Origin: Clostridia bacterium
GTDB taxonomy: Bacteria > Bacillota > Clostridia > Oscillospirales > CAG-272
Direction: 5' to 3'
Assembly: GCA_017461475.1 (NCBI GenBank)
Contig: JAFTXX010000014.1
Coordinates: 20,779-84,778 of the forward strand
DNA: 64,000 nt
Below the pieces are notes generated by a model. It saw only the letters and a list, made by a program, of their open reading frames with translations. It did not search any database and was not told the origin of the DNA. Made by a program: the position numbers and the translations under genes. Below are positions 21,029-45,956 of the stretch, one piece after another. Positions within the stretch are counted from its first letter, which is position 1. Each line of letters starts with the position of its first letter.

Positions 21029-21104
21029 GCTGGTGTAGCACAGTCGGTAGTGCAGCTGATTCGTAATCAGCAGGTCGTGTGTTCGAGTCACATCACCAGC
21101 TCCA
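21029..21104 (+). tRNA. tRNA-Thr(CGT), prophage integration target
   Basis: Cloverleaf: GCTGGTG/CACCAGC acceptor stem, anticodon loop TTCGTAA, GTTCGAG T-loop, encoded CCA. Confidence 0.95.
21060..21104 (+). repeat. att core (attL), 3' half of tRNA-Thr
   Basis: ttcgtaatcagcaggtcgtgtgttcgagtcacatcaccagctcca is also at 61246-61290. Confidence 0.92.
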
Positions 21105-21575
21105 TTGAAAAGTCTTGAAAGCCTTGATTTTATTAGGTTTTTGGGACTTTTCTTTTTTTTGTCCGTTATCTCTGTTTTTAGGCAAAATTCTTCAAAAATC
21201 GCGTCAAATCTTGAATGTTGGTAACGCTGTTGGCAACATTTTTACCTCTCTCGATACGCTTAAAACCTTGTAAAATCAAGAGTTTTGACTTCTTTTAACG
21301 GTTTATTCATCATTTTGACATCAATTTTTGCATTTTTATTATATCACAGGTGTCTTTTTTTGTCAAGTATTGGAAGAAAAATATTTATATTTGTCTTTTC
21401 ATGCCCCTCTTTGGTCTCTATTTGGGGCATCATCCCATATTTTTCTTTCTATGCTATCCGATTTTTTTAAAGCTATTGGAGAAGCATAAAAATGGAAAAA
21501 TATCCCATATAGCATGCAACGGGCTTAGTGTATAAATACGGCGGGGCTCTTTGCTTTCCGTTCCAACTGCAAACC

Positions 21576-21608
21576 AAAAAGCGGGGAGCTCATTGCTCTC
21601 CGCTTTTT
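21576..21608. terminator. Bidirectional terminator downstream of the integrase
   Basis: aaaaagcggggagc-tcatt-gctctccgcttttt. Confidence 0.8.
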
Positions 21609-21680
21609 GCTGTTTTACAGCTTTTTGCTTTTACAGATCATTTATGATCGTTTACAAATTACACTCGTTACTTTTTTCTT

Positions 21681-22817
21681 TTACAGGTCCTTTATGGCGT
21701 TCTTAAGCCATTCGGTATCTGTATGGGTATATGTATTCAGTGTCGTTTCTATCTGTTTATGTCCGATTATATCTTGCAGCGCTTTGGGATCGACGCCTTT
21801 CTTTGCGCACATTGATGCGAACGTATGGCGGCAGGTATGGGGATTTCGTTTCTTTATCTGCTCCTCCGTATATCCCGCGCTCTCCAGAGCCTTATAGTAC
21901 ACTCTCTTTCTGAAATTCTCGCTATTGAATTTTGATCCCGTTGCCGAGGAGTAGAGGTATTCTCCCTCCGAATTGAGAAGTCTCTCGAGGATCATCGCCA
22001 CCGAGTCGGGGATGGGGATGACACGGTTTTTTCCTTTTTCGGTCTTATTTCCTCCGTGGAGGCATCCGTCGTAGTAATCGTTTTTTTTCAGGGACAGGAA
22101 CTCATCTATTCTCAGCCCCGTATAGCAAAGGAAGAGCACCACGCCTATTCTGAGGTCCTGTGTGGCATCATAATGTTTTCTGAGGGCTTCTATCTCCTCA
22201 TCACTGAAACGCTCCTTAGAGGGCGGTTTTTTAGCTGTTACCGAGCAGAATACGGCGTAGTCCTTATCGATCACGTCGTTCTGGACTCCCCACTGGCATA
22301 TCTTTGAGGCGAGGAGGGCTATTTTTGAGACGGTCGAGTGGGATTTGCCCTGTTCGACGGCTTTGTTCAATATCTCCTGTATCTGCTGTGTTTTTATATC
22401 GCTGAGTCGGGTATTCTCGAGGGGGCGCAGAAATCTCCACGCCATCTCATACGTTCCTATCCCTTTGGGTGTCAGTGTGGCGAAGTGTGTCTCGCTCCAC
22501 ATTCTGTACGCCTCTCCGAAAGTGACTTTAAAAAGCGCTGTGACGTTCCCTTTTATATTGATATTATCGAGCGCTATTTCTGCCTCGGTCTTTGTGGCGT
22601 AGGTGCCGTAGGTGATACGCTGTCGTTCTCCGTCTCTATCGACGTATATCCTGACGAGGTAGGGTTTTCTTCTTCGTCCCGGGAGCTTGGTGATCGTGCC
22701 CATACCGTTGGCTCGTTTGAGCTTTTTGGGCTTGGGGGTGGACAGCAGCTTTTTACCGCAGTATCTGCAATATACGCTGTCGTCCTCTATTTCGTTTTTA
22801 CATTTTTTGCAGATCAT
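21681..22817 (-). CDS. int: Tyrosine integrase with N-terminal zinc ribbon
   Basis: TGLRIDE, KTEKG, HTCRHT and IGH..TYTH catalytic residues; CKKC..CRYC at the N-terminus. Confidence 0.95.
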   Translation of the reverse strand: MICKKCKNEIEDDSVYCRYCGKKLLSTPKPKKLKRANGMGTITKLPGRRRKPYLVRIYVDRDGERQRITYGTYATKTEAEIALDNINIKGNVTALFKVTFGEAYRMWSETHFATLTPKGIGTYEMAWRFLRPLENTRLSDIKTQQIQEILNKAVEQGKSHSTVSKIALLASKICQWGVQNDVIDKDYAVFCSVTAKKPPSKERFSDEEIEALRKHYDATQDLRIGVVLFLCYTGLRIDEFLSLKKNDYYDGCLHGGNKTEKGKNRVIPIPDSVAMILERLLNSEGEYLYSSATGSKFNSENFRKRVYYKALESAGYTEEQIKKRNPHTCRHTFASMCAKKGVDPKALQDIIGHKQIETTLNTYTHTDTEWLKNAIKDL

Positions 22818-22843
22818 GGCGGGGAGCTCCTTTCAGAAATTTG

Positions 22844-23320
22844 TTAATAGTCGAAAAACAACGACGCGATTAACAGTAATTGTAATAAAAACTGATAAAT
22901 TGGCAGACATGCAGAGGCTCGAAGCACCGGGGAATATGCGTTCTTCAAACTGCTCGAATCAAGGGATTTATAAAATGAAATTCTTTTTATGAATACAAAA
23001 ATAGTTAGCATTAAAAAGAAAACGTGTATCGAGGTTAGCGCTATTGCAAAACCATAAAGGTCGTTATAGCACAGAAAATACAAAATAATGGATAAAATAG
23101 TAAAGCCTACAAACTTTGTAATTAAGCTGGCGGTGTAGTTAAAAAAATTATTTGATATCTCTAGCAGTCGTCCGTAAAAAACATTATGAGTTTGTACTAT
23201 TTGGATATTCAGTGCTGCAATGGGATCTGAGCAGTAAGCCTTTTGGAATATTATAACGTTCCTTATCCAAAATATAGCTAACAACACGATGGCGATTGGG
23301 ATACATACAAGTAGATTCAT
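22844..23320 (-). CDS. Hypothetical membrane protein (AT-rich lysogeny cargo)
   Basis: Four hydrophobic segments, GGAGG RBS. Confidence 0.7.
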   Translation of the reverse strand: MNLLVCIPIAIVLLAIFWIRNVIIFQKAYCSDPIAALNIQIVQTHNVFYGRLLEISNNFFNYTASLITKFVGFTILSIILYFLCYNDLYGFAIALTSIHVFFLMLTIFVFIKRISFYKSLDSSSLKNAYSPVLRASACLPIYQFLLQLLLIASLFFDY

Positions 23321-23590
23321 AATTAAACCTCCAAAGTTTCTATTTTTTGACAGTCTAATTATACCACACTTTTGGGAATAAATAAAGTCGGTTGTGGGAA
23401 TTTCTCAAAATTTTTTACGATTTTACATATTTTTACGTTAATATTCGACAATATTCGACAGAACGTACTACTTACTAATAATTGTATCGATTATATATCC
23501 GTTGAGAAACAGCAGAGTTTGTTTTTTTCTTAAAACAGATTGACTATTTTTGGGTTTTGTTGTATAATGTAAGGGGAGGAGGTAATATTT

Positions 23591-24109
23591 ATGGTTAAAA
23601 GTGAAATAATCGAAAAGGCAAAAGAATTTTGTGAAGAACATAATATCAACTCTTATCCGGTAAAAATAGTTGATCTCTGCTCCAAATACGGCATTAGCGT
23701 TTTTGAGGAATATTTACCTGATGACGTATCGGGTATTATTGCCGTGCGGGATGAAATCTTTGATGATTTTAATACGAACAGGTTAATTGTTGTGAATTTA
23801 TCCGACAGCGCGAGAAGAAGGCGGTTTACGATTGCTCACGAATTGGCGCATTATATGCTTCACCGCAACGGTAGTCAGATCTACGCTCACAGAGACGCAG
23901 GACAGAATGGCGGTATTGAGAATGAAGCAAATGTTTTTGCGTCTAACATTCTTATGCCGGAGCATTTGGTAAGGTCTGCGCTGTCTCATCTTGAGGATGA
24001 ATCCTGGGGCTTTATTCCTTCATCGGTGAAGGCGGAGTATATTGCGGATGAATTTGCGGTATCCGTGTCCGCTGCTCAGGTACGCCTGGAACAGCTTGGA
24101 ATATCTTGA
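23591..24109 (+). CDS. ImmA/IrrE-family metallo-endopeptidase
   Basis: RRRFTIAHELAH and ENEANVFASNILMP motifs. Confidence 0.9.
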   Translation: MVKSEIIEKAKEFCEEHNINSYPVKIVDLCSKYGISVFEEYLPDDVSGIIAVRDEIFDDFNTNRLIVVNLSDSARRRRFTIAHELAHYMLHRNGSQIYAHRDAGQNGGIENEANVFASNILMPEHLVRSALSHLEDESWGFIPSSVKAEYIADEFAVSVSAAQVRLEQLGIS

Positions 24110-24121
24110 TGAGGTGCGCCG

Positions 24122-24628
24122 ATGGAAAATTACAACGAGCTGATGGAGCAAATATTTGACGATGTTCCTGATAACCCCTCAAAAATACCTGTGGATGACA
24201 GCAAGTTGCTGGCGGCTTCCTCTAAGGAGGGCAGTGAATGGGGTGAGCAATATGACAGACGGGACACATTGTATTCTGATCTGTTGGATAGATACATTAA
24301 AGTATATAAGAGCAAGGCTGCTTGGAATAAATGGTATAAATTAGCGTTTTTCGTTATTGCTATGCTTATTTTCATCGGGATAGTAGTTGTCTCGCTGCTT
24401 GCGCTGTTGATCGCGGCTATTATGGCTAATGATCAAAATGTTGTATCTACCGTTATTATCGCGATAGGCAGTATGTCGGGTATTATTTCTTCTATAATCG
24501 TTCTGCCTAAGATCATTGCCGAGCATCTGTTCCCGACCAATGAAGATGAAAATATGATTGGAATGGTTAAAAATATGCAGGTAAATGATTCGAAGATCCG
24601 TTCTTTTTCAAGAAACGGAAAAGGATAA
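24122..24628 (+). CDS. Two-TM membrane protein co-transcribed with the IrrE-like gene
   Basis: Two hydrophobic helices; 12 bp gap to the upstream gene. Confidence 0.75.
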   Translation: MENYNELMEQIFDDVPDNPSKIPVDDSKLLAASSKEGSEWGEQYDRRDTLYSDLLDRYIKVYKSKAAWNKWYKLAFFVIAMLIFIGIVVVSLLALLIAAIMANDQNVVSTVIIAIGSMSGIISSIIVLPKIIAEHLFPTNEDENMIGMVKNMQVNDSKIRSFSRNGKG

Positions 24629-24703
24629 TTTTTATTAGAGGCACACCCCTACGGGGGTGTGTTTTTTGTTGCCGAAACGAACTGTTCGAAATTTTCGAAC
24701 AGT

Positions 24704-25543
24704 TCATTTTTTATCCGACAGCTTTTTCTTTTCCTGCTCACGTTCAAGTTGCTTTATGCTCTTTTCGGGTGTGGGAAGATCCTCGGGCATAGTGCCGCCG
24801 AGCTCTTTTATTGTCTGACGGACCTTTACACCGACCTCATAATGTGTTCGGTTAGCTTCTGTCTTTCCTTGTACGTTGTCACGACGCAGTTTTTCCTCTG
24901 TCTGTGTAGCGCGGAAAAGATTGGCGGCAAGCTCTGTGCTTCCCATATGGTCGAGAATGTCCTGGCTTTTTTTGAGTCCTTTGCGCTGCTTTATATCTTG
25001 CGCTTTCAAGCCGCCGTAAAGTCCCATATACCCATAGTTTTGAAATACGGCGTAATCTAACGGCTCTATTACCCCTGCATTGTGCGCGGCTTCGGCTAAG
25101 GCGGCGTTGTGGCGTTTCATTTCTTTGCGGATAGCAATGCGTTTCTGATCCTCAGAAAGCTGTTCGTAATTATCGATCAATTCTTGCTGACGGGTTTTTA
25201 CGGCAAAATACGTTTGACCGACGGCAATGACTTCTTTGCGGGGATCACCATTCATAACAATCAGGTAACACGCATAGCGGGATAGCATATAATCGGGAAT
25301 ACTTTTATGCGCGCCTTTAGGCATATCTATCGTTTTGCTGACGTCAGCAAAATGATCCTCGATGCTGAAGCCGCTATTTTTACAAGCTAATTTTGCTCGC
25401 TCGATTGCCTCCGCAAAATTTCGCCATTGCGCATATTCAAGAACAGGCTGCAATTCTCGAGCCAGCCAATATTCCTGACCATTCTCGTTGATATGTTTTA
25501 TACTTTCAAACGTTTGCTCGTTGTAGACGGTAATGTTACTCAT
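24704..25543 (-). CDS. dinD: DinD-family DNA-damage-inducible protein
   Basis: FESIKH..EYWLARELQ, LSRYACYL, YFAVKTR.QE, MGSTELAANLFR and GGTMPEDLP motifs. Confidence 0.88.
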   Translation of the reverse strand: MSNITVYNEQTFESIKHINENGQEYWLARELQPVLEYAQWRNFAEAIERAKLACKNSGFSIEDHFADVSKTIDMPKGAHKSIPDYMLSRYACYLIVMNGDPRKEVIAVGQTYFAVKTRQQELIDNYEQLSEDQKRIAIRKEMKRHNAALAEAAHNAGVIEPLDYAVFQNYGYMGLYGGLKAQDIKQRKGLKKSQDILDHMGSTELAANLFRATQTEEKLRRDNVQGKTEANRTHYEVGVKVRQTIKELGGTMPEDLPTPEKSIKQLEREQEKKKLSDKK

Positions 25544-25579
25544 ATTCTTAACTTCCTTACATTTTTCTTTGAGATAGTT

Positions 25580-26245
25580 TTATTCTATTGGATATTGCCC
25601 TGAGACGACCTTCCCGAGGATGGCTATATGGTCGAGCTGTTCTCCTTCGTATCTCATAGGCTTGAACGTTGGGTTTTCGGGGACGAGGGTGATCACGTTG
25701 TTTTCCTTATCGTAATATACGCGCTTGACGGTTGTTTCGTCCTCTATTCGGATGACGGCTATTTCTCCGTCATCTACCATTGTCTGGCTTTTTACAAACA
25801 GTATGTCTCCGTCGAAGATCCTCGCGTTTATCATACTGTCCCCCTTGGCTCGTAAGCAGAAGTCCGCTTGGATGTCCTCGTCGGCGGATATATATGCCTC
25901 ATAATGTTCGTCAGCATACTTGGGGTCTCCGCAGGCTACCTCGCCCAGCAGGGGGAGCTTTTTTGTTTTTATGGGGAGCATATCTTTGGGAATATCGTCT
26001 GATGCAAAAAGTTGGAGATTGAGCGTGGTTTTTGGGGCGATTTCTTCTTTGCCTAAAAGATAACCAACAGATACTCCAAAATATGCCGCTATTTTTTGAG
26101 CGGTAACGGCAGATACTCCTGAACGCCTACCTTTCTTTAAATCTGTCAGGAGACCTTTGCTGATTCCTATATCAGTGCACATTTTACCGCCTGTTATTCC
26201 TTTACTTTCGCAAAGCGCAACAATATTTTTGTATAAATTACTCAT
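25580..26245 (-). CDS. CI/LexA-like repressor (HTH plus S24 peptidase)
   Basis: N-terminal HTH; VACG autocleavage site, GDSM (Ser) and TVKR (Lys). Confidence 0.93.
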   Translation of the reverse strand: MSNLYKNIVALCESKGITGGKMCTDIGISKGLLTDLKKGRRSGVSAVTAQKIAAYFGVSVGYLLGKEEIAPKTTLNLQLFASDDIPKDMLPIKTKKLPLLGEVACGDPKYADEHYEAYISADEDIQADFCLRAKGDSMINARIFDGDILFVKSQTMVDDGEIAVIRIEDETTVKRVYYDKENNVITLVPENPTFKPMRYEGEQLDHIAILGKVVSGQYPIE

Positions 26246-26409
26246 ACGAGTACCTCCTCGATTGTTCAAAAGTACTAAACTTTTGTATTATTGTATTTTG
26301 GGGCTTGACAAATACTCAAACAAGTACTATAATATAGCCAAGAAGTACTCGAACGAGTATAAATGTTTACTTGTACTATAATTATAGTACATAAAAGAGT
26401 ACTTGTCAA
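26238..26409. promoter_or_regulatory. Genetic switch: face-to-face promoters and TACT-N6-AGTA operators
   Basis: TTGACA-17-TATAAT on + at 26305-26333 and on - at 26409-26381; operators tactcatacgagta, tactcaaacaagta, tactcgaacgagta and tacataaaagagta. Confidence 0.85.
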
Positions 26410-26437
26410 GACTATTTTTGAAAGGAGGCGAATTTCA

Positions 26438-26650
26438 GTGAATTTAAGCAAATATACAGACTTTGGATTGTGCGTAAAAACAAAACTTTTGCAGATCGGC
26501 AAAGACCAAAAGTGGCTTGAAGAGGCTGTCTCGGAAAAGACAGGGTTATTTATAGATAACGGTTATATGTATAAGATACTGACAGGGCAGCGCCGCGCGC
26601 CAAGGATCGTGGCTGCGATTTGCGAGATTTTATCCGTAGAAAGTAATTAG
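26438..26650 (+). CDS. Cro-like small HTH protein
   Basis: GTG start after AAAGGAGG; divergent from cI. Confidence 0.75.
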   Translation: MNLSKYTDFGLCVKTKLLQIGKDQKWLEEAVSEKTGLFIDNGYMYKILTGQRRAPRIVAAICEILSVESN

Positions 26651-26660
26651 GGAGGGAAAA

Positions 26661-27290
26661 ATGAAGTTTCCGAGAAAAGTATATTGCATCCGGCATAATG
26701 TAACAAATCGGGTTTATATAGGGAGTAGCTGTCATGTTGATGCGAGATTGAGTGCTCATATGAGTGCTTTACGTAATCACGGGCATCTCGTAGAAGATAT
26801 GCAAAAAGATTTTGATCGTTATGGAGAGGACTTTATGTTTGCGGTGCTTGATGAAATAGGCAGCCCGGAGGAGAAAGAAAAAGAGTATCAATGGATGGAT
26901 AAATATCGCTCCTATATCAGAGGTGTTGGGTACAATTACAAGGATACCCACGTACAAGCCAAGATCAAGACATATCATCTGTTTGACGAAGAGGACGGTC
27001 GCTCGGGTTTACTACGCCCAATACGAGTAAGCGACGAACAGATTGGGGAAATTTACGATCATTCGATACAAACTCGATGGTGTCCGGTATGTAGAACGGG
27101 ATTGGCTATGATAGAAATAAGCCCATATGGAAGGCTACGGGTCAAGTGTCAAAACTGTTCTCATTCTACATCTGCGTATCCCTCCCATATGATTGCATTT
27201 ACGGAAAAGAGTATGGGTACGTTTATTGTCGAGGAGTCTCTTGCAAGGGCTATTCATATGGCGGTTGATGAGTGGAATAAAAAAATATAA
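26661..27290 (+). CDS. GIY-YIG nuclease-like domain fused to a C-terminal zinc finger (Lar-like)
   Basis: VYCIR..VYIGSS..R..H..E..GYN; CPVC..CQNC..WN. Confidence 0.75.
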   Translation: MKFPRKVYCIRHNVTNRVYIGSSCHVDARLSAHMSALRNHGHLVEDMQKDFDRYGEDFMFAVLDEIGSPEEKEKEYQWMDKYRSYIRGVGYNYKDTHVQAKIKTYHLFDEEDGRSGLLRPIRVSDEQIGEIYDHSIQTRWCPVCRTGLAMIEISPYGRLRVKCQNCSHSTSAYPSHMIAFTEKSMGTFIVEESLARAIHMAVDEWNKKI

Positions 27291-27301
27291 AAGGAGGGGC
27301 T

Positions 27302-27682
27302 GTGATATACTGTATTTTTTTATCCGTTACGGGTATTATGGGACTTTTAACGCTGATCTTTTACACATGGTACCTTGCGTGGTGTTTCTATGACAGTTTT
27401 AGTATCCGATCGACTGCCTTGGCTCTGATCTATCCCGGTGCTTGTCTTTTTACATGCTTGGTCTATGCGTGGGGAATGGGCGCGGAGGATGTATCTGACG
27501 TGTTAAAATGGATCACTGTAGTGATACTTGCTTTTTGTTGCGCCATTACAATTGCCGTTGCCGCTTATTTTTCAATAAAAAAATACCGCAAAGAGGGATA
27601 CGCTCCCAACTATGCGGCATTCTTGGTGGTGTGTGGGTATTCGGCGATTCTTGCGGGGGGCTCTGCGTTACTTGCGTTCTGA
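27302..27682 (+). CDS. Hypothetical membrane protein
   Basis: AGGAGG RBS, four hydrophobic segments. Confidence 0.65.
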   Translation: MIYCIFLSVTGIMGLLTLIFYTWYLAWCFYDSFSIRSTALALIYPGACLFTCLVYAWGMGAEDVSDVLKWITVVILAFCCAITIAVAAYFSIKKYRKEGYAPNYAAFLVVCGYSAILAGGSALLAF

Positions 27683-28087
27683 CGTTCTTCTAAGAACAGA
27701 AAAATTCTCGCAAAGGGAAAGGTATGACTCTTGGAGTTGTGTGCGCAATTGCTTTGATTTATCATAGTCTCCTACACGGGAAATTACAGAGATTTGAGTA
27801 TTTAAAGCTTTGATGTCATCCCATAATTCCTTGGGCGCATACATAAAGATTTCTGCGGAAGCTTCACCAAAGTCTCTCATATCGTTGTAATCCAAGGAGA
27901 AACAATATTTACCTGCGGTTTTCAGATACCGTTCAATCACTTCGTGTTCGTGCTCGATCCTAAAGCGTTTATGATACATTTTTTGTTCGTGTTTGCATTG
28001 AATGTGCGCGGTCAAAAACGGTCCTGCAATAGAGGTTAAAAAAGCTGCGGCAGATATTACTATGGCGATCACAGGGCTGAATTCCAT
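27668..28087 (-). CDS. Antisense-oriented moron-like hypothetical protein
   Basis: Own GGAGG RBS and TTGACA-17-TAAAAT promoter at about 28146-28118; N-terminal TM. Confidence 0.7.
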   Translation of the reverse strand: MEFSPVIAIVISAAAFLTSIAGPFLTAHIQCKHEQKMYHKRFRIEHEHEVIERYLKTAGKYCFSLDYNDMRDFGEASAEIFMYAPKELWDDIKALNTQISVISRVGDYDKSKQLRTQLQESYLSLCENFSVLRRTSERK

Positions 28088-28248
28088 AAGAGTCGTCCTC
28101 CAAATTTGATTTTACTTATTTTACCACATTACAAAAATTTTGTCAATAAATTTAGAAAAGGAGATTAAAACAATGAAAAAACAAGAACACGCGCTTACGG
28201 GCGGGTGCAATCAAAAAAATTTACCAAGAAAAAACGGAGGAATGAGAA

Positions 28249-29001
28249 ATGAACGAGTTGAAAATTTTTGAGAACAGGGAGTTTGGAAAGATGAGGACGA
28301 TCACGGTTGACAATGAGCTGTGGTTTGTTGGAAAAGATGTGGCGGAAATACTTGGGTACAAAGATACATCTGATGCGATAAAGAAGCACGTCGAAAATGA
28401 GGACAAGCTGACTCGGCGATTTGCCGACTCAGGTCAAAACCGCGAAATGTATATAGTTAATGAAAGCGGTCTTTACAGCTTAATTCTTTCAAGTAAACTC
28501 CCGAAGGCAAAGGAGTTCAAGCATTGGGTGACATCGGAGGTCCTTCCCTCTATACGCAAGACAGGGGGGTACATAGCGGGGCAGGAGGCTATGAGTGATG
28601 ATGAGCTTATGGCGAAGGCTCTGCTTGTGGCTCAGCGTCAGATCGAGGAGCGCAACAAGCTCATTGAGACTATGCGTCCCAAGGCTCTTTTTGCCGATGC
28701 GGTGGCTACCAGCAAGACCTCTATTCTTGTGGGGGAGCTTGCCAAGATCCTCAAGCAGAACGGTGTGGATATGGGGCAGAGGCGGTTATTTGCCTGGCTC
28801 CGTGACAACGGCTTTCTGATGAAGCGCGGCTCGGACTACAATATGCCCACTCAGAGGGCTATGGAGATGAGGCTTTTTGAGATCAAGGAGACCACGGTGA
28901 ACAATCCCGACGGCTCGGTACGTGTCAACAAGACCACGAAGGTGACGGGGCGCGGGCAGAATTATTTTGTTAACAGATTTTTGGGCGTGTCTCAGGAATG
29001 A
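28249..29001 (+). CDS. Phage antirepressor (BRO-N plus KilAC/ANT)
   Basis: WFVGKDVA, NESGLYSLI and EVLPSIRKTG; C-terminal KVTGRGQ.YF. Confidence 0.93.
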   Translation: MNELKIFENREFGKMRTITVDNELWFVGKDVAEILGYKDTSDAIKKHVENEDKLTRRFADSGQNREMYIVNESGLYSLILSSKLPKAKEFKHWVTSEVLPSIRKTGGYIAGQEAMSDDELMAKALLVAQRQIEERNKLIETMRPKALFADAVATSKTSILVGELAKILKQNGVDMGQRRLFAWLRDNGFLMKRGSDYNMPTQRAMEMRLFEIKETTVNNPDGSVRVNKTTKVTGRGQNYFVNRFLGVSQE

Positions 29002-29022
29002 CGCATGAAAGGAGCGACATTT

Positions 29023-29259
29023 ATGAAACGAATGGTAATAGTCATTGACGCGGAGGAGGGCTCGGAGGTCAGGCGCGAGGATGTGATAGACACCCTCTCC
29101 GAAGTCTTTCGTCTTGACGGAGTAGACGGCGTATCGATATACGACGGGGCGGAATGGACTGTAAGCAAAAAAATACCTGTTTTTTCAGTTGAACAGGTAT
29201 CGAAGCTATTTAAAAACAGGTCGGCTGAGATTACGCCGACGGGAAAGGAGAACATATGA
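29023..29259 (+). CDS. Hypothetical phage protein
   Basis: AAAGGAG RBS; operon context. Confidence 0.6.
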   Translation: MKRMVIVIDAEEGSEVRREDVIDTLSEVFRLDGVDGVSIYDGAEWTVSKKIPVFSVEQVSKLFKNRSAEITPTGKENI

Positions 29260-29477
29260 AAAACAGCAAGACCACGGTTACGGTACAGGAGGCAGCGGAG
29301 ATATTCCGCGAGGCGGGGGTGTCTATATCTCTCGACGCTCTGAAGCAGGGAATTATTCACAAGGAATTTCCATTCGGGTTGGCTATTAAGCTTACACAGT
29401 GGGTATTTATAATCTACAGAAAGCCTCTGATAGACTATCTTCGGTCTGTGGGGGCGGAAATCGTTGAGGAGGTGTAA
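29256..29477 (+). CDS. Putative excisionase-like DNA-binding protein
   Basis: TVQEAAE..FPFG.AI..IYR pattern. Confidence 0.6.
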   Translation: MKNSKTTVTVQEAAEIFREAGVSISLDALKQGIIHKEFPFGLAIKLTQWVFIIYRKPLIDYLRSVGAEIVEEV

Positions 29478-29479
29478 TT

Positions 29480-29740
29480 ATGAAGGAGCTTGTGAATTTG
29501 CTCAGCGATGGTGGTTTATCTCTTGAGGCTGCCGAGAGGGCGGCAGAGATCGTTGTGTCTGACGGTTGGCGAAAGGTTCCCGTAGGTGTATGGAAGCGTG
29601 ACGGGGACTGTAAGAGCAGCACGAAGGATGTGTTCATCTGCTCAGTGTGCGGTCGGTGGCAATCGGCTAAGAAGCGGTCGGACAAAATGTTTTATATGAA
29701 GTTTTGTCCTCACTGCGGAGCGGAGATGACCACCGATTGA
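29480..29740 (+). CDS. Zinc-ribbon phage protein
   Basis: CSVC..FCPHCGAEM. Confidence 0.75.
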   Translation: MKELVNLLSDGGLSLEAAERAAEIVVSDGWRKVPVGVWKRDGDCKSSTKDVFICSVCGRWQSAKKRSDKMFYMKFCPHCGAEMTTD

Positions 29741-29845
29741 AAAAAGAAAAGCTCACAGGTCGCAGCAACGATCTGTGAGCAAGGGGGTGTTGAATTTTCG
29801 ACAATTCCACGCCCTTATTATATCACAAACGTTTAAAAAAATCAA
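29740..29845 (-). ncRNA. Candidate antisense small RNA (about 75 nt) in the early region
   Basis: Minus-strand TTGATT-17-TATAAT (29845-29817), a hairpin, then a gctcacag/ctgtgagc terminator stem and U-tract. Confidence 0.6.
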
Positions 29846-29853
29846 TAGGGGGA

Positions 29854-30108
29854 ATGAAAATTATGGACTTAAATGAACTCAGAAGCGCCTTGGAGACGAA
29901 ACGGACGGTTTTGTGGCGGGGACGGATGGACTATGAGAGTGCCATCGGAAGCGTGACGGCGATAATCACTCGCCACGAGAATGAGGCGGATGTGGTCTCT
30001 GCCGAGCTGACGGGCTACGGCTCGCGGCGAAGCGTGATGATATGCCGCCCCGAGGATCTTGAATTTTGGAATGCCGCAACAAGTTCGGCGGTGAAGGGAG
30101 GAGTATAA
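29854..30108 (+). CDS. Hypothetical phage protein
   Basis: ORF with RBS in the early operon. Confidence 0.6.
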   Translation: MKIMDLNELRSALETKRTVLWRGRMDYESAIGSVTAIITRHENEADVVSAELTGYGSRRSVMICRPEDLEFWNAATSSAVKGGV

Positions 30109-30109
30109 A

Positions 30110-30253
30110 ATGAAACACATATTTAAAAAGCTATTCGACGCGGTGGTGTTTCCGTTCATCGCGCTGGCGGTACATATTGACGAGAGCCGACGTGCCAATG
30201 AGGACGGCTCGTGGGACAAGTATTTTGAAAAGAAAAACGGAGGCGCAAAATGA
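30110..30253 (+). CDS. Small hypothetical protein (47 aa, not in the ORF track)
   Basis: GGAGG RBS; MKHIFKKLFDAVVFPFIALAV... Confidence 0.55.
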   Translation: MKHIFKKLFDAVVFPFIALAVHIDESRRANEDGSWDKYFEKKNGGAK

Positions 30254-30399
30254 GTTACAGTATATGCCGCGGCGGCGGAAAGATGTGTGACGGCTGCATG
30301 AGGTGCTATGACCGTTTTGATGATGACGAGGAATATGTCGACCTCTATGAGGACGAGGAGGACGAAGAGGATGAGGAGGATGAGGGATATGATCAATGA
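30250..30399 (+). CDS. 49-aa Cys-rich, extremely acidic protein (not in the ORF track)
   Basis: GGAGG RBS; MSYSICRGGGKMCDGCMRCYDRFDDDEEYVDLYEDEEDEEDEEDEGYDQ; overlaps both neighbours. Confidence 0.7.
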   Translation: MSYSICRGGGKMCDGCMRCYDRFDDDEEYVDLYEDEEDEEDEEDEGYDQ

Positions 30400-31324
30400 G
30401 ATCGCATACCACAGCAAGGAAGAGTGGCTGGCACTGCGCAAGATGATGGGCATAGGCGGCTCGGATGCGGGGGCGGTGGTCGGCTTAAATCCCTACAAGA
30501 GCGCCTATTCGCTTTGGGCTGAAAAGACGGGGCGTGTGGCTGAATTCGAGGGCAATCTTACCACCGAGGTGGGCTCTTATCTTGAGGAGTTTGTGGCGAA
30601 GCTCTTTGAGAGAGAGACCGGGAAGCGGGTGAGGCGGAAGAACAGGATGCTTGTCAATTCCGACTATCCCTTTGCATTCGCCGACGTGGACAGGCTTGTG
30701 GTTGGGGAGAGGGCTCTTCTGGAGATTAAGACTACAAACTCCATACCTCTTATGAAGAAGGTGCGACAGGGCGAGTTCCCCGAGCAGTATTATGCTCAAT
30801 GCGTTCACTATCTTGCGGTAAGTGGCTTGGAGAAAGCATATCTTGCCGTTCTTATCGGTTGCAGAGACTTTCGGATCTTCGAGCTCGAACGTGATGAGGG
30901 GGAGATCTCCGCTCTTATGGAGGCGGAGAGGAGCTTTTGGTTTGACAACGTCAAGGCTGACGCTCCACCGCCTGCTGACGGCTCTATCTCCACCTCGGAG
31001 ACGGTGACGGCTCTATATCCTGAGTCGAATGACGAGACGGTAAGCCTTGTGGCTTATGAGGCTGATCTGCGGCAGTATATGACCTATACCGCCCTTATCA
31101 AGAGCGCTGAGAAGCAGAGAGACGAGGCAGCGGGCAGGATCAAGGCGTTTATGAAAATGTCGGGGAAGGGTGAAGCGTCGGGCTTTCGCGTATCCTTTGC
31201 GAGCTCTGAGCGCAGGTCCTTTGACGCGAAGCTCTTTGCTGCCGAGCATCCTCATATGGATCTTACGAAATACTACAAAAATTCAACCTATCGCACCTTT
31301 AAGGTGATAGAAGTAAATATATAA
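30389..31324 (+). CDS. YqaJ-like recombination exonuclease
   Basis: GIGGSDAG, ADVDR, LEIKT and YAQCVHY motifs; start moved to 30389. Confidence 0.92.
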   Translation: MINEIAYHSKEEWLALRKMMGIGGSDAGAVVGLNPYKSAYSLWAEKTGRVAEFEGNLTTEVGSYLEEFVAKLFERETGKRVRRKNRMLVNSDYPFAFADVDRLVVGERALLEIKTTNSIPLMKKVRQGEFPEQYYAQCVHYLAVSGLEKAYLAVLIGCRDFRIFELERDEGEISALMEAERSFWFDNVKADAPPPADGSISTSETVTALYPESNDETVSLVAYEADLRQYMTYTALIKSAEKQRDEAAGRIKAFMKMSGKGEASGFRVSFASSERRSFDAKLFAAEHPHMDLTKYYKNSTYRTFKVIEVNI

Positions 31325-31339
31325 GGAGATATAAAAATT

Positions 31340-32143
31340 ATGGCAAACACAATTCAGAACAAGGTATCGGCTGTCAATCAGAACGGCGAAAAGAAAACGA
31401 TGCAGATGTACATAAAGGCGATGGAGGGTGAGATAAAAAAAGCTCTGCCGTCGGTGATCACGCCTGAGAGGTTTACAAGAATGGTTCTCTCGGCAATATC
31501 CACAAATCCCAAGCTCGCCTCCTGTACGCCTGCCTCGTTTCTTGGGGCGATGATGTCGGCAGCTCAGCTCGGTCTTGAGCCGAACACGCCTCTCGGGCAG
31601 GCGTATCTGATACCCTACAAGAACAAGGGTAGAGACGAGGTTCAGTTCCAACTCGGATATAAAGGTCTTATCGATCTTGCGTATAGAAGTGGCGAGGTGG
31701 AGCTTGTGCAGGCTCATATCGTCTATGAGAACGACACGTTTGAGTGCGAATATGGACTTGAGCCGCGGCTTGTACACAAGCCTGCCGACAGCGACAGAGG
31801 AGAGCCTATGCGGGTGTACGCTATGTTCAAGACCAAGAGCGGTGGCTACGGCTTTGAGGTGATGAGCATGGACGACGTTCGCCGTCACGCAGAAAAGTAT
31901 AGCCAAGCCTACAAGTCGGGTTTCTCTCCTTGGAAAACGAATTTTGAGGAGATGGCAAAAAAGACTGTGCTTAAACGGGTACTTAAATACGCGCCTCTCA
32001 AGTCGGATTTTGTGAGGGCGGTCGTGCAGGACGAGAGCATCAAGAACGAAATTTCCGATGATATGTACGAGGTACAGAGCGAGACCGTATTTGAGGCGGA
32101 ATACACCGAGGCGGACGAGGAGACAGGCGAGGTGATCGAATGA
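31340..32143 (+). CDS. recT: RecT-family single-strand annealing protein
   Basis: AAQLGLEP..GQAYLIPY, FQLGYKG and SPW..FEEMAKKTV motifs. Confidence 0.93.
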   Translation: MANTIQNKVSAVNQNGEKKTMQMYIKAMEGEIKKALPSVITPERFTRMVLSAISTNPKLASCTPASFLGAMMSAAQLGLEPNTPLGQAYLIPYKNKGRDEVQFQLGYKGLIDLAYRSGEVELVQAHIVYENDTFECEYGLEPRLVHKPADSDRGEPMRVYAMFKTKSGGYGFEVMSMDDVRRHAEKYSQAYKSGFSPWKTNFEEMAKKTVLKRVLKYAPLKSDFVRAVVQDESIKNEISDDMYEVQSETVFEAEYTEADEETGEVIE

Positions 32144-32592
32144 GCAATCTTAATATAAACAAGGTCGTTCTCGGCGGTCATCTTACAGCCGATGTGGAGC
32201 TGAAGCAGACACCGAGCGGCGTTTCGGTATGTCAATTTTCGATTGCGGTAAATCGCAGATTTTCAAGGGATGGAGAGCGGCAGACCGATTTTATAACCTG
32301 TCAGGCGTGGCGTCAGACGGCTGAATTTATCGCAAGATATTTTCGCAAGGGCTCGGCGCTCTGCGTGTGCGGCAGTATACAGACGAGGTCGTGGACAGAC
32401 AGCGGGGGACAGAAGCGCTACGCGACGGAGATAGTTGTGGACGAGGCGTATTTTGTTGACAGCAGGAGTGACGGACAAGGAGCGGCAGATACCAATACTT
32501 ACATACCCGACGCATACGCTGCCCCCGGATTTGCGGGAGCGGATAAACCGAGCTTTGAGACAATGTCGGCAGACGATGATCTGCCGTTTTAG
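32140..32592 (+). CDS. ssb: Single-stranded DNA-binding protein
   Basis: NKVVLGGHL, DFITCQAW, C-terminal DDDLPF. Confidence 0.95.
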   Translation: MSNLNINKVVLGGHLTADVELKQTPSGVSVCQFSIAVNRRFSRDGERQTDFITCQAWRQTAEFIARYFRKGSALCVCGSIQTRSWTDSGGQKRYATEIVVDEAYFVDSRSDGQGAADTNTYIPDAYAAPGFAGADKPSFETMSADDDLPF

Positions 32593-32605
32593 AGAGGGAG
32601 TATAG

Positions 32606-33403
32606 ATGAACTCTATATTAAATTACCCCGGAGCTAAATGGGGTATGGCTTCAAAGATCGTAGAGCTTATGCCGCCTCACAGATCATACCTTGAGCCGTT
32701 TTTTGGCTCGGGCGCGGTATTGTTTAACAAATCTCCCTCAGCAATAGAAACCGTTAATGATATAGACGGTGATATCGTTAATTTCTTTCGGGTGGTAAGA
32801 GAATCCCCGGAAGAGCTTGCCGAGGCTATCGCTTTAACTCCGTATGCTCGTGATGTTTTTGATGACGCTCACGATGATCGAGGGGCTTCGCCTTTTGACA
32901 GGGCTTATCGTTTTGCCATTAGATCACGTATGGGACACGGCTTCAAAACCTATCAAAAAACAGGATTCAAGATAGACGTATACGCACGTGAGAGAAGCTA
33001 TTGTGTAAGTATGTGGAATAAAATGCCACAGGATATTTTGAGAGCTGCCGAGCGCCTTAAGGATGTTCAGATTGAAAATCGTCCTGCGCTGGATCTTATA
33101 AAAAAATTCAATTATGATAATGTTCTGATCTATGCGGATCCTCCGTATCTTCTCGAAACGAGGGGCGGCAAACAATATAAACACGAGATGGACGAGCAGG
33201 ATCATCTTGACCTGCTGGCCGCATTAGTTAAATTTAAGGGATATGTAATAATTAGCGGATATCAATCCGAAATGTACGATAGGGAGCTGAGGGGGTGGAA
33301 CAAGTTATTGTTTAAGTCTTATAATCAGAACAACGAACCACGCACCGAGGTCTTGTGGTTTAATTTCGATTCGTTGTCTGTGTTTGACTATGAAAGATTA
33401 TGA
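32606..33403 (+). CDS. DNA adenine methyltransferase (Dam/D12 class)
   Basis: YPGAK, YLEPFFGSG, NDID and YADPPY motifs. Confidence 0.92.
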   Translation: MNSILNYPGAKWGMASKIVELMPPHRSYLEPFFGSGAVLFNKSPSAIETVNDIDGDIVNFFRVVRESPEELAEAIALTPYARDVFDDAHDDRGASPFDRAYRFAIRSRMGHGFKTYQKTGFKIDVYARERSYCVSMWNKMPQDILRAAERLKDVQIENRPALDLIKKFNYDNVLIYADPPYLLETRGGKQYKHEMDEQDHLDLLAALVKFKGYVIISGYQSEMYDRELRGWNKLLFKSYNQNNEPRTEVLWFNFDSLSVFDYERL

Positions 33404-33414
33404 GGTAACACATA

Positions 33415-34194
33415 ATGGCAGAAAAACGAATGTTTTCAAAGACGATCATCAGCTGTGACGACTTCACCGAGCTGCCTTTTTCCACGCAGGCGCTCTACTT
33501 CCATTTGTCTATGGAGGCGGATGACGATGGGTTCGTCAACAACTCGAAGAAGATAATGAGGACCATACGCGTGACCAAAAAGGATATGGACAGGCTTGTG
33601 GCAAAGGGCTACATCATCCCCTTCGACAGCGGTGTATATGCCATCAGGCATTGGCGGATAAACAACTACATAAGGAAGGACAGATACACTCCCACTATCT
33701 ATCTGCGTGAGATGGAACAGCTCGAGGTCGACGGCAGCGGAGCATACAAGGAGCGGTTACCTATTGGTGTACCAAACGGTGCACCGTCTTGTAACCGCTT
33801 GGGAGCACAGAAGAGAATAGAAGAGAGTAGTATAGAGCAGTGTAGAGAGAGAGACGCGCGCGCGCCCGCGAGGGTGGAGGAGCCCATACCCCAAGAGGAG
33901 CCCATACCCGAGGAAAGGTCTATAATCGGGAAGAGTCCTTGCGGGGAGTTCGGCAACGTGTATCTGACCGAGGCTGAGAGAAGCGCTCTTGACGGGCGAT
34001 ACGGCGCGTCGCTGGCAGAGGCGCTTATTGATAATCTCTCGCGGCGCATCAAGTCAAAGGGCTATCGGTATGAGGACCACTATGCTACCATCCTCGATTG
34101 GGCGGCGAAGGACGGTGTGAAAACATCATCGGAGAAGTCCTATGACACGGATGAGTTCTTCCAAGCGGCGGTGCAGAGGAGCTTGGAGGAATGA
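33415..34194 (+). CDS. Phage replication initiator (replisome organizer)
   Basis: MAEKRMFS..QALYFHL..ADDDGF N-terminus; internal direct repeats. Confidence 0.85.
   Translation: MAEKRMFSKTIISCDDFTELPFSTQALYFHLSMEADDDGFVNNSKKIMRTIRVTKKDMDRLVAKGYIIPFDSGVYAIRHWRINNYIRKDRYTPTIYLREMEQLEVDGSGAYKERLPIGVPNGAPSCNRLGAQKRIEESSIEQCRERDARAPARVEEPIPQEEPIPEERSIIGKSPCGEFGNVYLTEAERSALDGRYGASLAEALIDNLSRRIKSKGYRYEDHYATILDWAAKDGVKTSSEKSYDTDEFFQAAVQRSLEE
33877..33909 (+). repeat. 15-bp direct repeat GAGGAGCCCATACCC x2 inside the replication gene
   Basis: Copies at 33877-33891 and 33895-33909. Confidence 0.7.
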
Positions 34195-34466
34195 GGAGCG
34201 AAGATGAAAGGAGAAACGATATGATCGAGGATCGTGTTTTGACTCAGCCAACGGTTGCGCCGTTTGAATGGATCTCTGTATCTCACGCTCTTCCAAAGGA
34301 AAAGGGGCGATACCTTGTTATTGACAACGGTGGCTATGATCTTGCGTGGTTTGATCCCGAACGAAAGACTTTTTCTACTGACAGCAGCGGTGCAAGGATC
34401 GGTATCAACAGGAGTGTAAGCCATTGGATGCTCCTGCCGAAACGACCTGCGGAGGTGTTGATGTGA
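34191..34466 (+). CDS. DUF551-like phage protein
   Basis: WISVSHALP...VSHWMLLP.RP. Confidence 0.75.
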   Translation: MRSEDERRNDMIEDRVLTQPTVAPFEWISVSHALPKEKGRYLVIDNGGYDLAWFDPERKTFSTDSSGARIGINRSVSHWMLLPKRPAEVLM

Positions 34467-34639
34467 GCAAAGAAAAACAGCTTGAAAATGCTCTGAACGA
34501 GCTTATAGCCGAAGCGGCGAGTGGCGGCGGGCACGTCTATATCGTTGACAAGCGACAGAACACTTTCGCCTTGAAGCTGACAGAGCCTATCAGGATACAA
34601 TTCTATGGCGGATACAAGGGGGAGTGTAATGCAGAGTAA
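34463..34639 (+). CDS. Hypothetical phage protein
   Basis: GTG start after GGAGG; overlaps neighbours. Confidence 0.55.
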   Translation: MSKEKQLENALNELIAEAASGGGHVYIVDKRQNTFALKLTEPIRIQFYGGYKGECNAE

Positions 34640-34994
34640 ATATCACAGTCGGAAGGTCACAACGAACGGTGTTACCTTCGACAGCGCAAAAGAGGCGAAG
34701 AGGTACGGGGAGCTGCTTCTGCTTGAGAAGGCGGGGGCGATCTCCGACCTTCGGCGGCAGGTCGAATTTGTCTTGATCCCCGCGCAACGTGAGCCTGACA
34801 TACCGGGAAAACACGGCGGTATCGTCAAAAGAGGAAAGACCATAGAGCGTAAAGTATCGTATATAGCAGACTTTACATACACAGAGAACGGAAAGCAGAT
34901 AGTGGAAGATGTCAAGGGATTTCGGACGCCTGAATATAAGATCAAGAAAAAAATGATGTTGTATTTTCACGGCATCAGGATAAGGGAGGTATAG
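34629..34994 (+). CDS. DUF1064-family putative endonuclease
   Basis: KYHSRK..FDSAKEA, YIADF and VEDVKG motifs. Confidence 0.88.
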   Translation: MQSKYHSRKVTTNGVTFDSAKEAKRYGELLLLEKAGAISDLRRQVEFVLIPAQREPDIPGKHGGIVKRGKTIERKVSYIADFTYTENGKQIVEDVKGFRTPEYKIKKKMMLYFHGIRIREV

Positions 34995-34997
34995 GCG

Positions 34998-35219
34998 ATG
35001 GGGAAGGAGCTTGATTACATTTTCCCCGAACGCAAATGCGCGAGATGCGGAAGGCTTTTTCTTGCGGCTCCGCAACACGCCTTGAAGCTCAAAGTGGGCG
35101 GAGAGCGGACGGTTTGGTTTTGCAAACCGTCCTGCTTATTAGGCTACAGCAAAGATAGGGAAGATCGGAAAACAAAAGGGAAACGCATTTGCGTTCAAAA
35201 AAACGATATAAAAGCGTAA
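34998..35219 (+). CDS. Small Cys-containing phage protein
   Basis: CARCG..FCKPSC. Confidence 0.6.
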   Translation: MGKELDYIFPERKCARCGRLFLAAPQHALKLKVGGERTVWFCKPSCLLGYSKDREDRKTKGKRICVQKNDIKA

Positions 35220-35243
35220 AAACGTTTAGAAAGGGGGCGAGTT

Positions 35244-35483
35244 ATGGCGAAAAAGAGGATAAAAAAGGACTCTGAAGAGGTCAGGTGTCCTTTCTTTCGC
35301 GGTGAGACTATGGCTGAAATAAGATGCGAGGGCTTTTTTCGGGGGTGCTCAATTCATGTGGCATTTGCCGATAAAAGTGAAAAGCGCTCCTTTATGAAAA
35401 ACGCTTGCGAGTATCTTTACACAGCTTGTCCGATATACAAGCTGTGTGACAGGAAGTATGACGACTTCGGAAAAACAAAATAA
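35244..35483 (+). CDS. Small Cys-rich protein, candidate late activator
   Basis: CPFF..IRCEG..C..CPIY; last gene before the packaging module. Confidence 0.6.
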   Translation: MAKKRIKKDSEEVRCPFFRGETMAEIRCEGFFRGCSIHVAFADKSEKRSFMKNACEYLYTACPIYKLCDRKYDDFGKTK

Positions 35484-35530
35484 ATTCAAAGAGGCGACGG
35501 GTGTTGCCTCTTTTTTTAAAAAAAGCCCTT

Positions 35531-35568
35531 GGGGGGACTCCCGAAAGGATGGTGTTTGAATGTATAAT
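35531..35568 (+). promoter_or_regulatory. Late promoter motif 1 (GGGGGGACTC-N22-TATAAT)
   Basis: Same motif and spacing recur at 42210 and 55620. Confidence 0.75.
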
Positions 35569-35596
35569 AATAAAAATAATTCGGGGGGAGCTTTCG

Positions 35597-36073
35597 GTGT
35601 CGCTTGAAAACGTCGATTGGAATGAGATAAAAAAAGAATATATATCAAGCGCTACGAGCTATCGGAAGCTGTGCGCGAAGTACGGCGTACCCCGCACCAC
35701 TCTTGAAAAGAGGGCGAAGGATGAGAAGTGGACAGATCTGCGAAGGCAGGTCAAGGACAAGGCAGAGGCAGATATGGTCAGACGGGTAGCTGAAGAAAGC
35801 TCAAAGGTGGATCATAAGTATTTCCGACTTGTGGACAAGCTTATCGATAAGGCAGATGAGGTAATAGAAAACACGCCCGTTTGGCAGGTGCAGTCTATCA
35901 AGGATATGGCTTCCGCTCTGCGGTCTCTCCGCGAATGCCGCGGATTTAAGACCGATATAGATTTGCGTGAACAAGAGGCTCGTATAAAAAATCTTGAGCG
36001 GCAGCTTGAGAAGAGCGACGATATCCCCGAGATAAACGTTGTGTTCGGCTCGGATGAGGACTTTGCAAAATGA
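35597..36073 (+). CDS. Terminase small subunit (putative)
   Basis: DWNEIKKEY HTH-type N-terminus; overlaps the TerL start. Confidence 0.75.
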   Translation: MSLENVDWNEIKKEYISSATSYRKLCAKYGVPRTTLEKRAKDEKWTDLRRQVKDKAEADMVRRVAEESSKVDHKYFRLVDKLIDKADEVIENTPVWQVQSIKDMASALRSLRECRGFKTDIDLREQEARIKNLERQLEKSDDIPEINVVFGSDEDFAK

Positions 36074-37479: not shown

Positions 37480-37485
37480 ACGAGA

Positions 37486-39411: not shown

Positions 39412-39734
39412 TAAATGTCGTATATGACGAAGCCTGCGGCATCACGATGACAGGGCACGCGGGACAAGCCCCGAGGGGGCAGGATATAGTCTGCGCGGGA
39501 GCCTCGGCAATAGTAATATCACTTGCCGAAATGCTTGAACGAAATAGTGAAGAGCTGATAGAGCGCGGTATACTGCTTGAAAGCGGCAGGGCAAGCATAA
39601 AGGTGGTGCCTCGCGGCGCCTTTAAAAATTGTTGTGAGGGCGCGTTTGAGATGGCTATGTGCGGGTTGGAGCTACTTTCGGAGCAATATCCCGATTACAT
39701 ATGTGTTTCCCGCGTTGCGGGGAATGGCGAATGA
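39408..39734 (+). CDS. prp: Prp ribosomal-processing-type cysteine protease (phage-encoded)
   Basis: GHAG...DIVCAGAS catalytic His/Cys; C-terminal L..QYPDYI. Confidence 0.92.
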   Translation: MINVVYDEACGITMTGHAGQAPRGQDIVCAGASAIVISLAEMLERNSEELIERGILLESGRASIKVVPRGAFKNCCEGAFEMAMCGLELLSEQYPDYICVSRVAGNGE

Positions 39735-39838
39735 TATATCGCCGTTGGCAATATTGATGAGGCTATTTGCTGTTTGCCTACGGCTAACAGGCAAATAGCA
39801 ACCATAATTCATCACATCGACGAAGTCGATATATCATT
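39730..39838. repeat. Long imperfect inverted repeat (about 110 nt)
   Basis: aatgatatatcg/cgatatatcatt, gatga/tcatc and gctatttgc-tgtt/aacaggcaaatagc arms. Confidence 0.7.
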
Positions 39839-39865
39839 TATCATTCATCATTTACAACACAGGGC

Positions 39866-39933
39866 TCGCCCACCTGACGGGCAGAAGGTTTCGCCCACCT
39901 GACGGGCAGACGGTCGACGACCTATTCGTCAGA
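39866..39933 (+). repeat. Tandem hairpin repeats in the scaffold gene leader
   Basis: tcgcccacctgacgggcaga x2 (39866-39885, 39891-39910) plus the variant tcgacgacctattcgtcaga abutting the RBS. Confidence 0.8.
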
Positions 39934-39943
39934 AAGGAGTCAT

Positions 39944-40918: not shown

Positions 40919-40942
40919 CGGTCTCCTCGAAAGGAGAAAAAT

Positions 40943-41923: not shown

Positions 41924-41941
41924 TATTAAAGGAGCTTGGTT

Positions 41942-42172: not shown

Positions 42173-42209
42173 TGTTGCCCTGTTGTCGAATGATATATCA
42201 TTTACGAAT

Positions 42210-42247
42210 GGGGGGACTCCCATAAGAGTCCCCCCATATCGTATAAT
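42210..42247 (+). promoter_or_regulatory. Late promoter motif 2
   Basis: GGGGGGACTC-N22-TATAAT; also palindromic (ggggggactc/gagtcccccc). Confidence 0.75.
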
Positions 42248-42276
42248 ATAGGCAAATATAAAAGGAGGTTGGAAAA

Positions 42277-42654: not shown

Positions 42655-42655
42655 T

Positions 42656-45953: not shown

Positions 45954-45956
45954 GCT

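Follow-up and report, generated by a model that had tools for sequence, protein, structure and literature searches.

Repressors of the LexA/CI type rely on their S24 domain for dimerisation, and a cut between this domain and the DNA-binding domain is a known way of inactivating them. ImmA/ImmR (ICEBs1 and phage phi105) and IrrE/DdrO are pairs in which an M78 metalloprotease dedicated to the task cleaves a helix-turn-helix (HTH) repressor in trans. Apart from the SOS response, little is understood of how prophages of gut Firmicutes are induced. In Staphylococcus aureus phages, the fragments left by autocleavage of the CI repressor go on repressing until they are removed by ClpX (PMC10584840). 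The protease Prp, in turn, processes ribosomal protein L27 and the capsid and scaffold proteins of phage 80alpha at their N-termini, and 80alpha relies on the Prp of its host (PMC5744158). Here we describe a prophage in a 64,000-nucleotide stretch of a Clostridia bacterium genome (contig JAFTXX010000014.1, positions 20,779 to 84,778; hereafter the window, in which all positions are counted) that encodes its own Prp and a CI-like repressor with a Prp-type motif in its interdomain linker. From the sequence, we consider it nearly an even call that this motif is a selected Prp site and provides a RecA-independent route of repressor inactivation, most plausibly through the late-expressed phage Prp.

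The repressor gene (25580..26245, minus strand; ATG at 26245, stop at 25580-25582) is preceded by GAGGAGG 7 nt upstream of the ATG and encodes 221 amino acids, numbered here from that ATG, that form an HTH domain, a linker and an S24 autopeptidase domain. Pfam searches matched HTH_26 (PF13443, E = 6.8e-6) and HTH_3 at about residues 10-64 and Peptidase_S24 (PF00717, E = 2e-29; cut-off 23.3 bits) at about residues 98-214, and the whole protein matched the transcriptional repressor family PHROG 4 (E = 3.7e-36). It also contains a LexA-type autocleavage site, V103-A-C-G106 (25928..25939, minus strand), and A104, C105, G106, S137 and K174 were invariant in an alignment of 14 repressor sequences; by analogy with LexA and lambda CI, we take VACG to be the cleavage site and S137/K174 to be the Ser/Lys dyad. 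The protein thus shares with LexA and lambda CI the HTH and S24 domains, the V-A-C-G sequence and the invariant Ser137 and Lys174, which together indicate an ordinary autocleaving repressor of this type. The Prp-type motif, L75-N76-L77-Q78-L79-F80-A81 (26003..26023, minus strand; codons CTC AAT CTC CAA CTT TTT GCA), lies 25 residues upstream of the autocleavage site in the interdomain linker (about residues 67-97; 25955..26047, minus strand), with F80/A81 as the predicted scissile bond. AlphaFold2 models the linker as unstructured, with residues 68-124 below 50 in predicted local distance difference test (pLDDT) score and free of secondary structure, and by this prediction the motif is accessible. 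Unlike LexA/CI autocleavage, the cut proposed here would fall 25 residues further upstream and would be made in trans by an unrelated cysteine protease, with no involvement of RecA or DNA damage.

The motif agrees closely with what is known of Prp recognition. The L27 consensus for Prp is (D/N)LQ(F/L)F'A, with either Phe or Leu at P2 (PMC9405229), and S. aureus Prp binds residues P1-P7 through hydrophobic sites for P1, P2, P4 and P6, a buried and essential Gln at P3, an Asn at P5 whose intrapeptide bond stabilises the peptide conformation, and a size-limited P1' position (PMC9261936). The same enzyme cuts FITC-KLNLQFFASKK-Dnp with a Km of 3.4 uM and a kcat of 0.26 per s (PMC9261936), and as this 11-mer is blocked at both ends, Prp does not need a free N-terminus. 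The repressor sequence LNLQLFAS (residues 75-82) differs from the corresponding LNLQFFAS of the assay peptide solely at P2. LNLQLF/AS thus fits the pattern L-(D/N)-L-Q-(F/L)-F/A with small P1' and P2' residues, and it is exposed in the AlphaFold2 prediction; in addition, a phage Prp and a host Prp are both encoded in the same cell. The recognition sequence, (D/N)-L-Q-(F/L)-F/A with a small P1' residue, is the one known from L27 and 80alpha, and this phage carries it N-terminally in its own capsid and scaffold proteins.

The phage Prp (108 aa; 39408..39734, plus strand) is encoded between the portal and scaffold genes and matches PF04327 (MEROPS C108) with 61.4 bits against a cut-off of 27 (E = 9.9e-17). 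Its relatives in the PDB are 2G0I, 4PEO/7KLD and 2IDL (E about 1e-3), and it aligns to the active-site segment GHA...DIVCAGASA of S. aureus Prp (4PEO/7KLD). Residues G16, H17, D26 and C29 were invariant among 15 Prp sequences, in keeping with the roles of a catalytic His and Cys plus a loop Asp in Prp (PMC9405229), so that this phage, as in the described Prp systems, has a Prp homologue with the His/Cys/Asp residues; unlike 80alpha, it brings its own. The gene sits in an unbroken run of plus-strand genes (terminase, portal, prp, scaffold and capsid) and has no strong promoter-like site immediately upstream, which suggests that it is a late gene. The bacterium contributes a further Prp, encoded in an rplU-prp-rpmA operon (genome contig C86). 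The major head protein (326 aa; 40943..41923, plus strand; PHROG 1357, E = 1.3e-69) starts MKNNFALDLQLFAFTD, with the motif at 40961-40981 and a predicted site MKNNFALDLQLFA/FTD. The protein at the scaffold position (324 aa; 39944..40918, plus strand) starts MKLTRNFDLLQMFAEGG, with a predicted site MKLTRNFDLLQMFA/EGG; it matches no Pfam family and falls in PHROG 13908, of unknown function, and we infer its scaffold role from its position and from 80alpha. The initial annotation had reported LNLQLF/A between the HTH and S24 domains of the repressor in addition to the VACG site, related motifs at the capsid and scaffold starts, and a Prp at 39408-39734, and all of these were recovered in the translations and the PF04327 match, with 26003-26023 read as L75-A81.

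Two observations on Prp motifs elsewhere arose alongside. Several scaffold-position genes that neighbour phage Prp genes in IMG/VR (L314, L315, L346, L366-L369 and L371) carry two Prp motifs about 47 residues apart (e.g., MVDLQMFA... followed by ...IALQMFA), a pairing that hints at internal Prp sites, or else at alternative starts, in natural phage substrates. A Bacillota metagenome-assembled genome (L396:1215-1243) contains an FlhB-like N-terminus, MDLQLFAEDRP...RKRQEARRRGQV, which would fit the published proposal of FlhB as an additional Prp substrate with an N-terminal site (PMC9405229).

Motifs of this kind are scarce in the genome. We scanned all six frames of the 2,061,081-base genome (open frames of at least 90 aa, 1,265,593 residues) for L[NDS]LQ[LFM]FA and found five matches, which represent three distinct proteins: the capsid (twice), the repressor (twice) and host L27 (once), the capsid and repressor matches being doubled by the two phage copies on the contig. 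The expectation from composition was 0.024, and none of 100 residue shuffles gave a match. Host L27 has the N-terminus MLKLSLQFFAHKKG and a precursor site LSLQFFA|HKKG, so the proteins that bear the pattern are members of two known Prp substrate classes (capsid and L27) plus the repressor, and no others. Of the seven motif codons, the repressor and capsid genes share just one and differ in six, which argues against recent DNA transfer as the source of their likeness. A further candidate, LQLFAFTD at 21615 and 61801, lies in a non-coding frame within a terminator-like stretch downstream of the integrase gene and was dismissed as a chance occurrence.

Structure prediction was also applied to the pair of enzyme and putative substrate. 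Two copies of the phage Prp were modelled with repressor residues 60-112 in three runs, together with three controls, and the median interaction prediction score from aligned errors (ipSAE) was 0.43 (runs 0.38, 0.48 and 0.43), compared with 0.01 for the best of the three controls. The runs shared at least 81% of their contacts, with a partner pLDDT of at least 47. The result passes a mark that 58 of 80 solved complexes reach, as do 2 of 110 mismatched pairs; scores that pass at 0.60 or under came from 7 of the 80 solved complexes and from both of the passing mismatches. Moreover, a similar complex (7KLD) is already solved, and the pass may therefore reflect likeness only. Taken together, the prediction weakly supports binding of the repressor by Prp.

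Homologous repressors provide a further line of evidence. LQLFA occupies the same linker position in 8 of the 120 closest repressor homologues (query included), and with a profile centred on the linker it was found 10-20 residues upstream of the S24 site in 16 of 330 homologues, i.e., S24 repressor proteins with a recognisable S24 site. These 16 comprise eight distinct linkers, and when the eight were compared with the motif as anchor, LQLFA was 100% identical, P6 was Leu in six (54% identity) and P5 was Asn or Asp in seven (32%), while all linker columns outside P6-P1' were only 4-36% identical. The conserved block therefore runs from P6 to P1' and matches what Prp reads. The S24 domains of the bearers are 59-87% identical, and their N-terminal DNA-binding domains are mostly unrelated, with 10-32% identity in 22 of 28 pairs; the remaining six pairs, at 67-79%, are among four bearers with one HTH type. 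Complete retention of LQLFA amid a diverged, disordered linker bears the mark of selection on a short linear motif, and the pentamer appears to be under purifying selection in this small group of homologous repressors. Near-variants also occur among the homologues, namely LQLFT (P0033), LQLFG (P0337) and SLFA (P0003). In a FastTree phylogeny of 325 S24 domains, built on about 125 residues and given here without branch support, the 15 full-length bearers fall into seven separate groups within one clade of 105 tips, interleaved with motif-less relatives that have unrelated linker sequence at the motif position. A look-alike pentamer that lacks the P5 and P6 residues, within VLQLFAENP, was seen inside the folded S24 domain of a repressor subgroup (L074, L120-L122, L150, L152, L155, L157 and L161), where this repressor reads ITLVPENP; that segment is probably structural.

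We hypothesize that a Prp-family (C108) protease would cut the repressor between F80 and A81 and so separate its HTH domain from its S24 domain, which would inactivate it without RecA, the result being that of autocleavage at the site 25 residues downstream. In vivo the likeliest enzyme for the cut would be the phage's own Prp, presumably a late gene product. Once the morphogenesis genes are switched on, Prp would then clear both residual and newly made repressor in a feed-forward manner, and the lytic programme could no longer be re-repressed. Cleavage, its consequence, its timing and the Prp responsible are all matters that we infer. In logic the proposal comes closest to ImmA/ImmR, as an element-encoded protease would inactivate the repressor of that element by site-specific cleavage; it differs in that the enzyme is a C108 cysteine protease and not an M78 metalloprotease, that it is a morphogenesis enzyme with a second job, and that the motif is common to structural proteins. 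An M78 gene is present in this phage besides Prp, and nothing links it to this repressor. Like the ClpX/CI pathway of phi11 and 80alpha (PMC10584840), the proposed cut would be a second proteolytic step beyond autocleavage in a Firmicutes phage, although there a host unfoldase acts on the autocleavage product and here a sequence-specific endoprotease would act on the linker. That a ClpX step is needed after CI autocleavage offers a rationale for an extra cut.

A wider reading, which we regard as conceivable and on balance doubtful, is that the head-maturation Prp doubles as a component of the lysis-lysogeny switch, with the repressor mimicking the capsid and scaffold site so that the Prp of the same or another phage ends immunity without RecA. 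If the phage and host enzymes are orthogonal in their preference (Q-L-F-A versus Q-F-F-A), the lysogen would leave the site untouched, and it would fire only during phage morphogenesis, which would make both commitment and cross-induction possible among prophages in polylysogens.

Several points weigh against the proposal that the repressor is a Prp substrate. All known and proposed Prp sites lie in N-terminal extensions, which in L27 and the 80alpha proteins are 8-14 residues long and belong to proteins that join a large assembly, whereas the repressor site is internal, in a linker, at residues 75-81 of 221. By family the repressor belongs to the LexA/CI S24 proteins and the protease to Prp, and the motif agrees with the sequence definition of a Prp site and not with the positional one. 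In addition, a late protease acts once derepression has already happened, so that its selective benefit has to be argued. An exposed site might also be cut in the lysogen by constitutive host Prp, and repression would then be weakened unless the host enzyme spares the site.

Rarity is a further difficulty. Only 1 of 150 repressor representatives at 50% identity carried the motif. It was found in the repressor at none of 16 and none of 80 IMG/VR loci and, in a set of 400 same-family genomes, at none of 29 loci; none of 28 metagenome loci and, among GTDB genomes, none of 80 loci and 72 sites had it either, where the patterns applied to metagenome contigs and GTDB genomes required Pro before [ML]LG and would miss the P0295/P0324 type (RLQMLG). 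In INPHARED there were 23 matches, none of which extended to the part of the query with the motif. Screening with a degenerate DNA pattern for [ND]LQLFAExRP gave 18 stretches in genome contigs and 5 in viral contigs; none was a repressor, and one was the FlhB-like N-terminus in L396. A homologue search with linker residues 62-115 alone returned only the query. Genomic context for other motif-bearing repressors, sought in IMG/VR, metagenome contigs, GTDB, the 400 same-family genomes and INPHARED, was accordingly not found.

Co-occurrence with Prp does not help the case. Among 20 near-complete IMG/VR phages with related, motif-less S24 repressors (picked by record length from about 90), seven encode Prp; wherever their loci include the capsid or scaffold starts, these are of the LQLFA type, and the repressor motif is present in none of the seven. 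At about 35%, phage Prp is thus frequent in this group of phages, and its presence alone is no reason to expect a cleavable repressor; with a base rate of about 0.35, the single co-occurrence of motif and Prp here is not significant. The RecA-independent Prp route that the initial annotation proposed is thus partly supported. In its favour are the motif match, the predicted accessibility, the conservation and the presence of both phage and host Prp; against it stand the seven Prp-encoding relatives without the motif and a point that the annotation left unweighed, namely that the host makes its own Prp for L27, a problem for stable lysogeny if the site can be cut freely.

Alternatively, host Prp might be the main cutter, such that free Prp left over from its work on L27 sets the half-life of the repressor and the level of spontaneous induction and thereby couples lysogeny to ribosome biogenesis. 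Besides its Prp the host has an L27 precursor whose motif is nearly the same, the substrate that Prp reads is a short linear peptide (PMC9261936), and the 80alpha proteins are processed by host Prp (PMC5744158). Constitutive cutting of a maintenance repressor looks costly, however, and P2 is Leu (Q-L-F-A) in all 16 motif-bearing repressors, as in phage substrates, whereas host L27 has Phe (Q-F-F-A), and we consider this explanation unlikely. The N-terminal motifs at 80 IMG/VR phage-Prp loci show the same tendency, with Q-L-F-A in 55 of 74 and Q-F-F-A in 4 of 74. Specificity at P2, with Leu in the repressors and phage motifs and Phe in host L27, is thus a possible way round host cutting. The position of S. 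aureus Phe42, which stacks on P1/P2, is Ile37 in the phage Prp and Met in the host Prp by manual counting, which is too uncertain to indicate a P2 preference.

The conservation itself might have a cause other than Prp. LQLFA could dock or pack with some other partner (e.g., an unfoldase or adaptor, Ant, the M78 metalloprotease or the S24 domain), its likeness to a Prp site being coincidental. Candidate partners exist, as the phage encodes an M78/ImmA-like protease (23591-24109) and Ant (28249-29001) and as ClpX binds CI fragments in S. aureus phages (PMC10584840); furthermore, the VLQLFAENP segment within the folded S24 domain of other homologues indicates that structural causes can give rise to the pentamer in this family. 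The conserved stretch, though, extends to P5 (N/D) and P6 (L) and ends at P1', exactly as the Prp footprint does, and across the genome the 7-mer is otherwise confined to the two other Prp substrates. Because motif-less homologues have unrelated sequence at its position, the motif is also no structural need of the fold. We regard a non-Prp partner as quite improbable.

It is very unlikely, in our view, that the site serves to sense foreign phages, the Prp of a superinfecting heteroimmune phage cutting the resident repressor and inducing the prophage. Phage Prp is indeed common in related Clostridia phages (the 7 of 20 records above, and 225 relatives of this phage's Prp in IMG/VR), and the substrates of those phages carry the same Q-L-F-A variant; yet Prp would come late in the invader and leave the resident phage little time, and the resident's own Prp would act on the site anyway. 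Equally remote is that the motif is functionless, having arisen once in an ancestor and persisted by descent or ridden along with the S24 module: all bearers do fall within the one 105-tip clade, most relatives lack the motif and LQLFT, LQLFG and SLFA look like decayed variants, but the five core positions are 100% identical against 4-36% in the linker and 59-87% in the S24 domains, and the bearers form seven interleaved clades in the FastTree phylogeny of about 125 residues.

Full-text literature searches turned up no Prp-cleaved repressor, and none is reported in the available article texts of PMC5744158, PMC9405229 (in which the word 'repressor' does not occur) or PMC9261936, the supplements of which lie outside this scope and may hold specificity data. 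None appears in the Discussion of bioRxiv 10.64898/2026.08.10.744006, and 'Prp' is not mentioned in the available part of a 2026 review (PMC13760530). If the repressor is cut as we propose, it would be the first regulatory target of the Prp family and would add a new RecA-independent input to the CI-type switch, as a case in which a regulator has copied a short linear motif from structural proteins. It would also have a bearing on Prp as an antibiotic target, since inhibiting or overloading Prp could then change prophage behaviour.

The prophage that harbours these genes is a unit of 40,186 bp (21060..61245) integrated in a tRNA-Thr(CGT) gene (21029-21104), the 3' 45 bases of which form the attachment (att) core at 21060-21104, found again at 61246-61290; the integrase gene (21684-22799, minus strand) lies just inside this core. 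The prophage is present as two perfect tandem copies, with 21060-23814 of the window identical to 61246-64000, and its contig (genome contig C44) ends exactly past a third 45-bp att core. Such an arrangement has one of two origins, a true tandem lysogen or a loop that the assembly made from reads of the excised phage circle, and the second would imply an active phage. Among sequencing runs, three DNA runs from one study contain the sequence, all of them possible sources of this assembly, and no RNA run was listed.

Between cI and cro, divergent sigma-70-type promoters are located at 26305-26333 (plus strand) and 26409-26381 (minus strand), each with 12 of 12 consensus positions and recognised as consensus matches only. 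The Cro-like small repressor (70 aa, GTG start; 26438..26650, plus strand) matches the transcriptional repressor family PHROG 1468 (E = 1.7e-7) and is directly followed in the early operon by a GIY-YIG homing-endonuclease-like gene (26661-27290, plus strand). The immunity region further includes the M78/ImmA-like metalloprotease gene (23591-24109, plus strand), 1.5 kb from cI and on the opposite strand, a Bro-N protein gene (24704-25543, minus strand) and the Ant-type anti-repressor gene (28249-29001, plus strand). The phage may therefore possess up to four routes of repressor inactivation, i.e., S24 autocleavage, Ant, M78 and Prp. Outside this region, an 88-nt direct repeat with 72% identity, at 42209-42296 and 55619-55706, precedes two late genes and contains a GC-rich hairpin and a ribosome-binding site, and it may be a repeated terminator/promoter or regulatory cassette.

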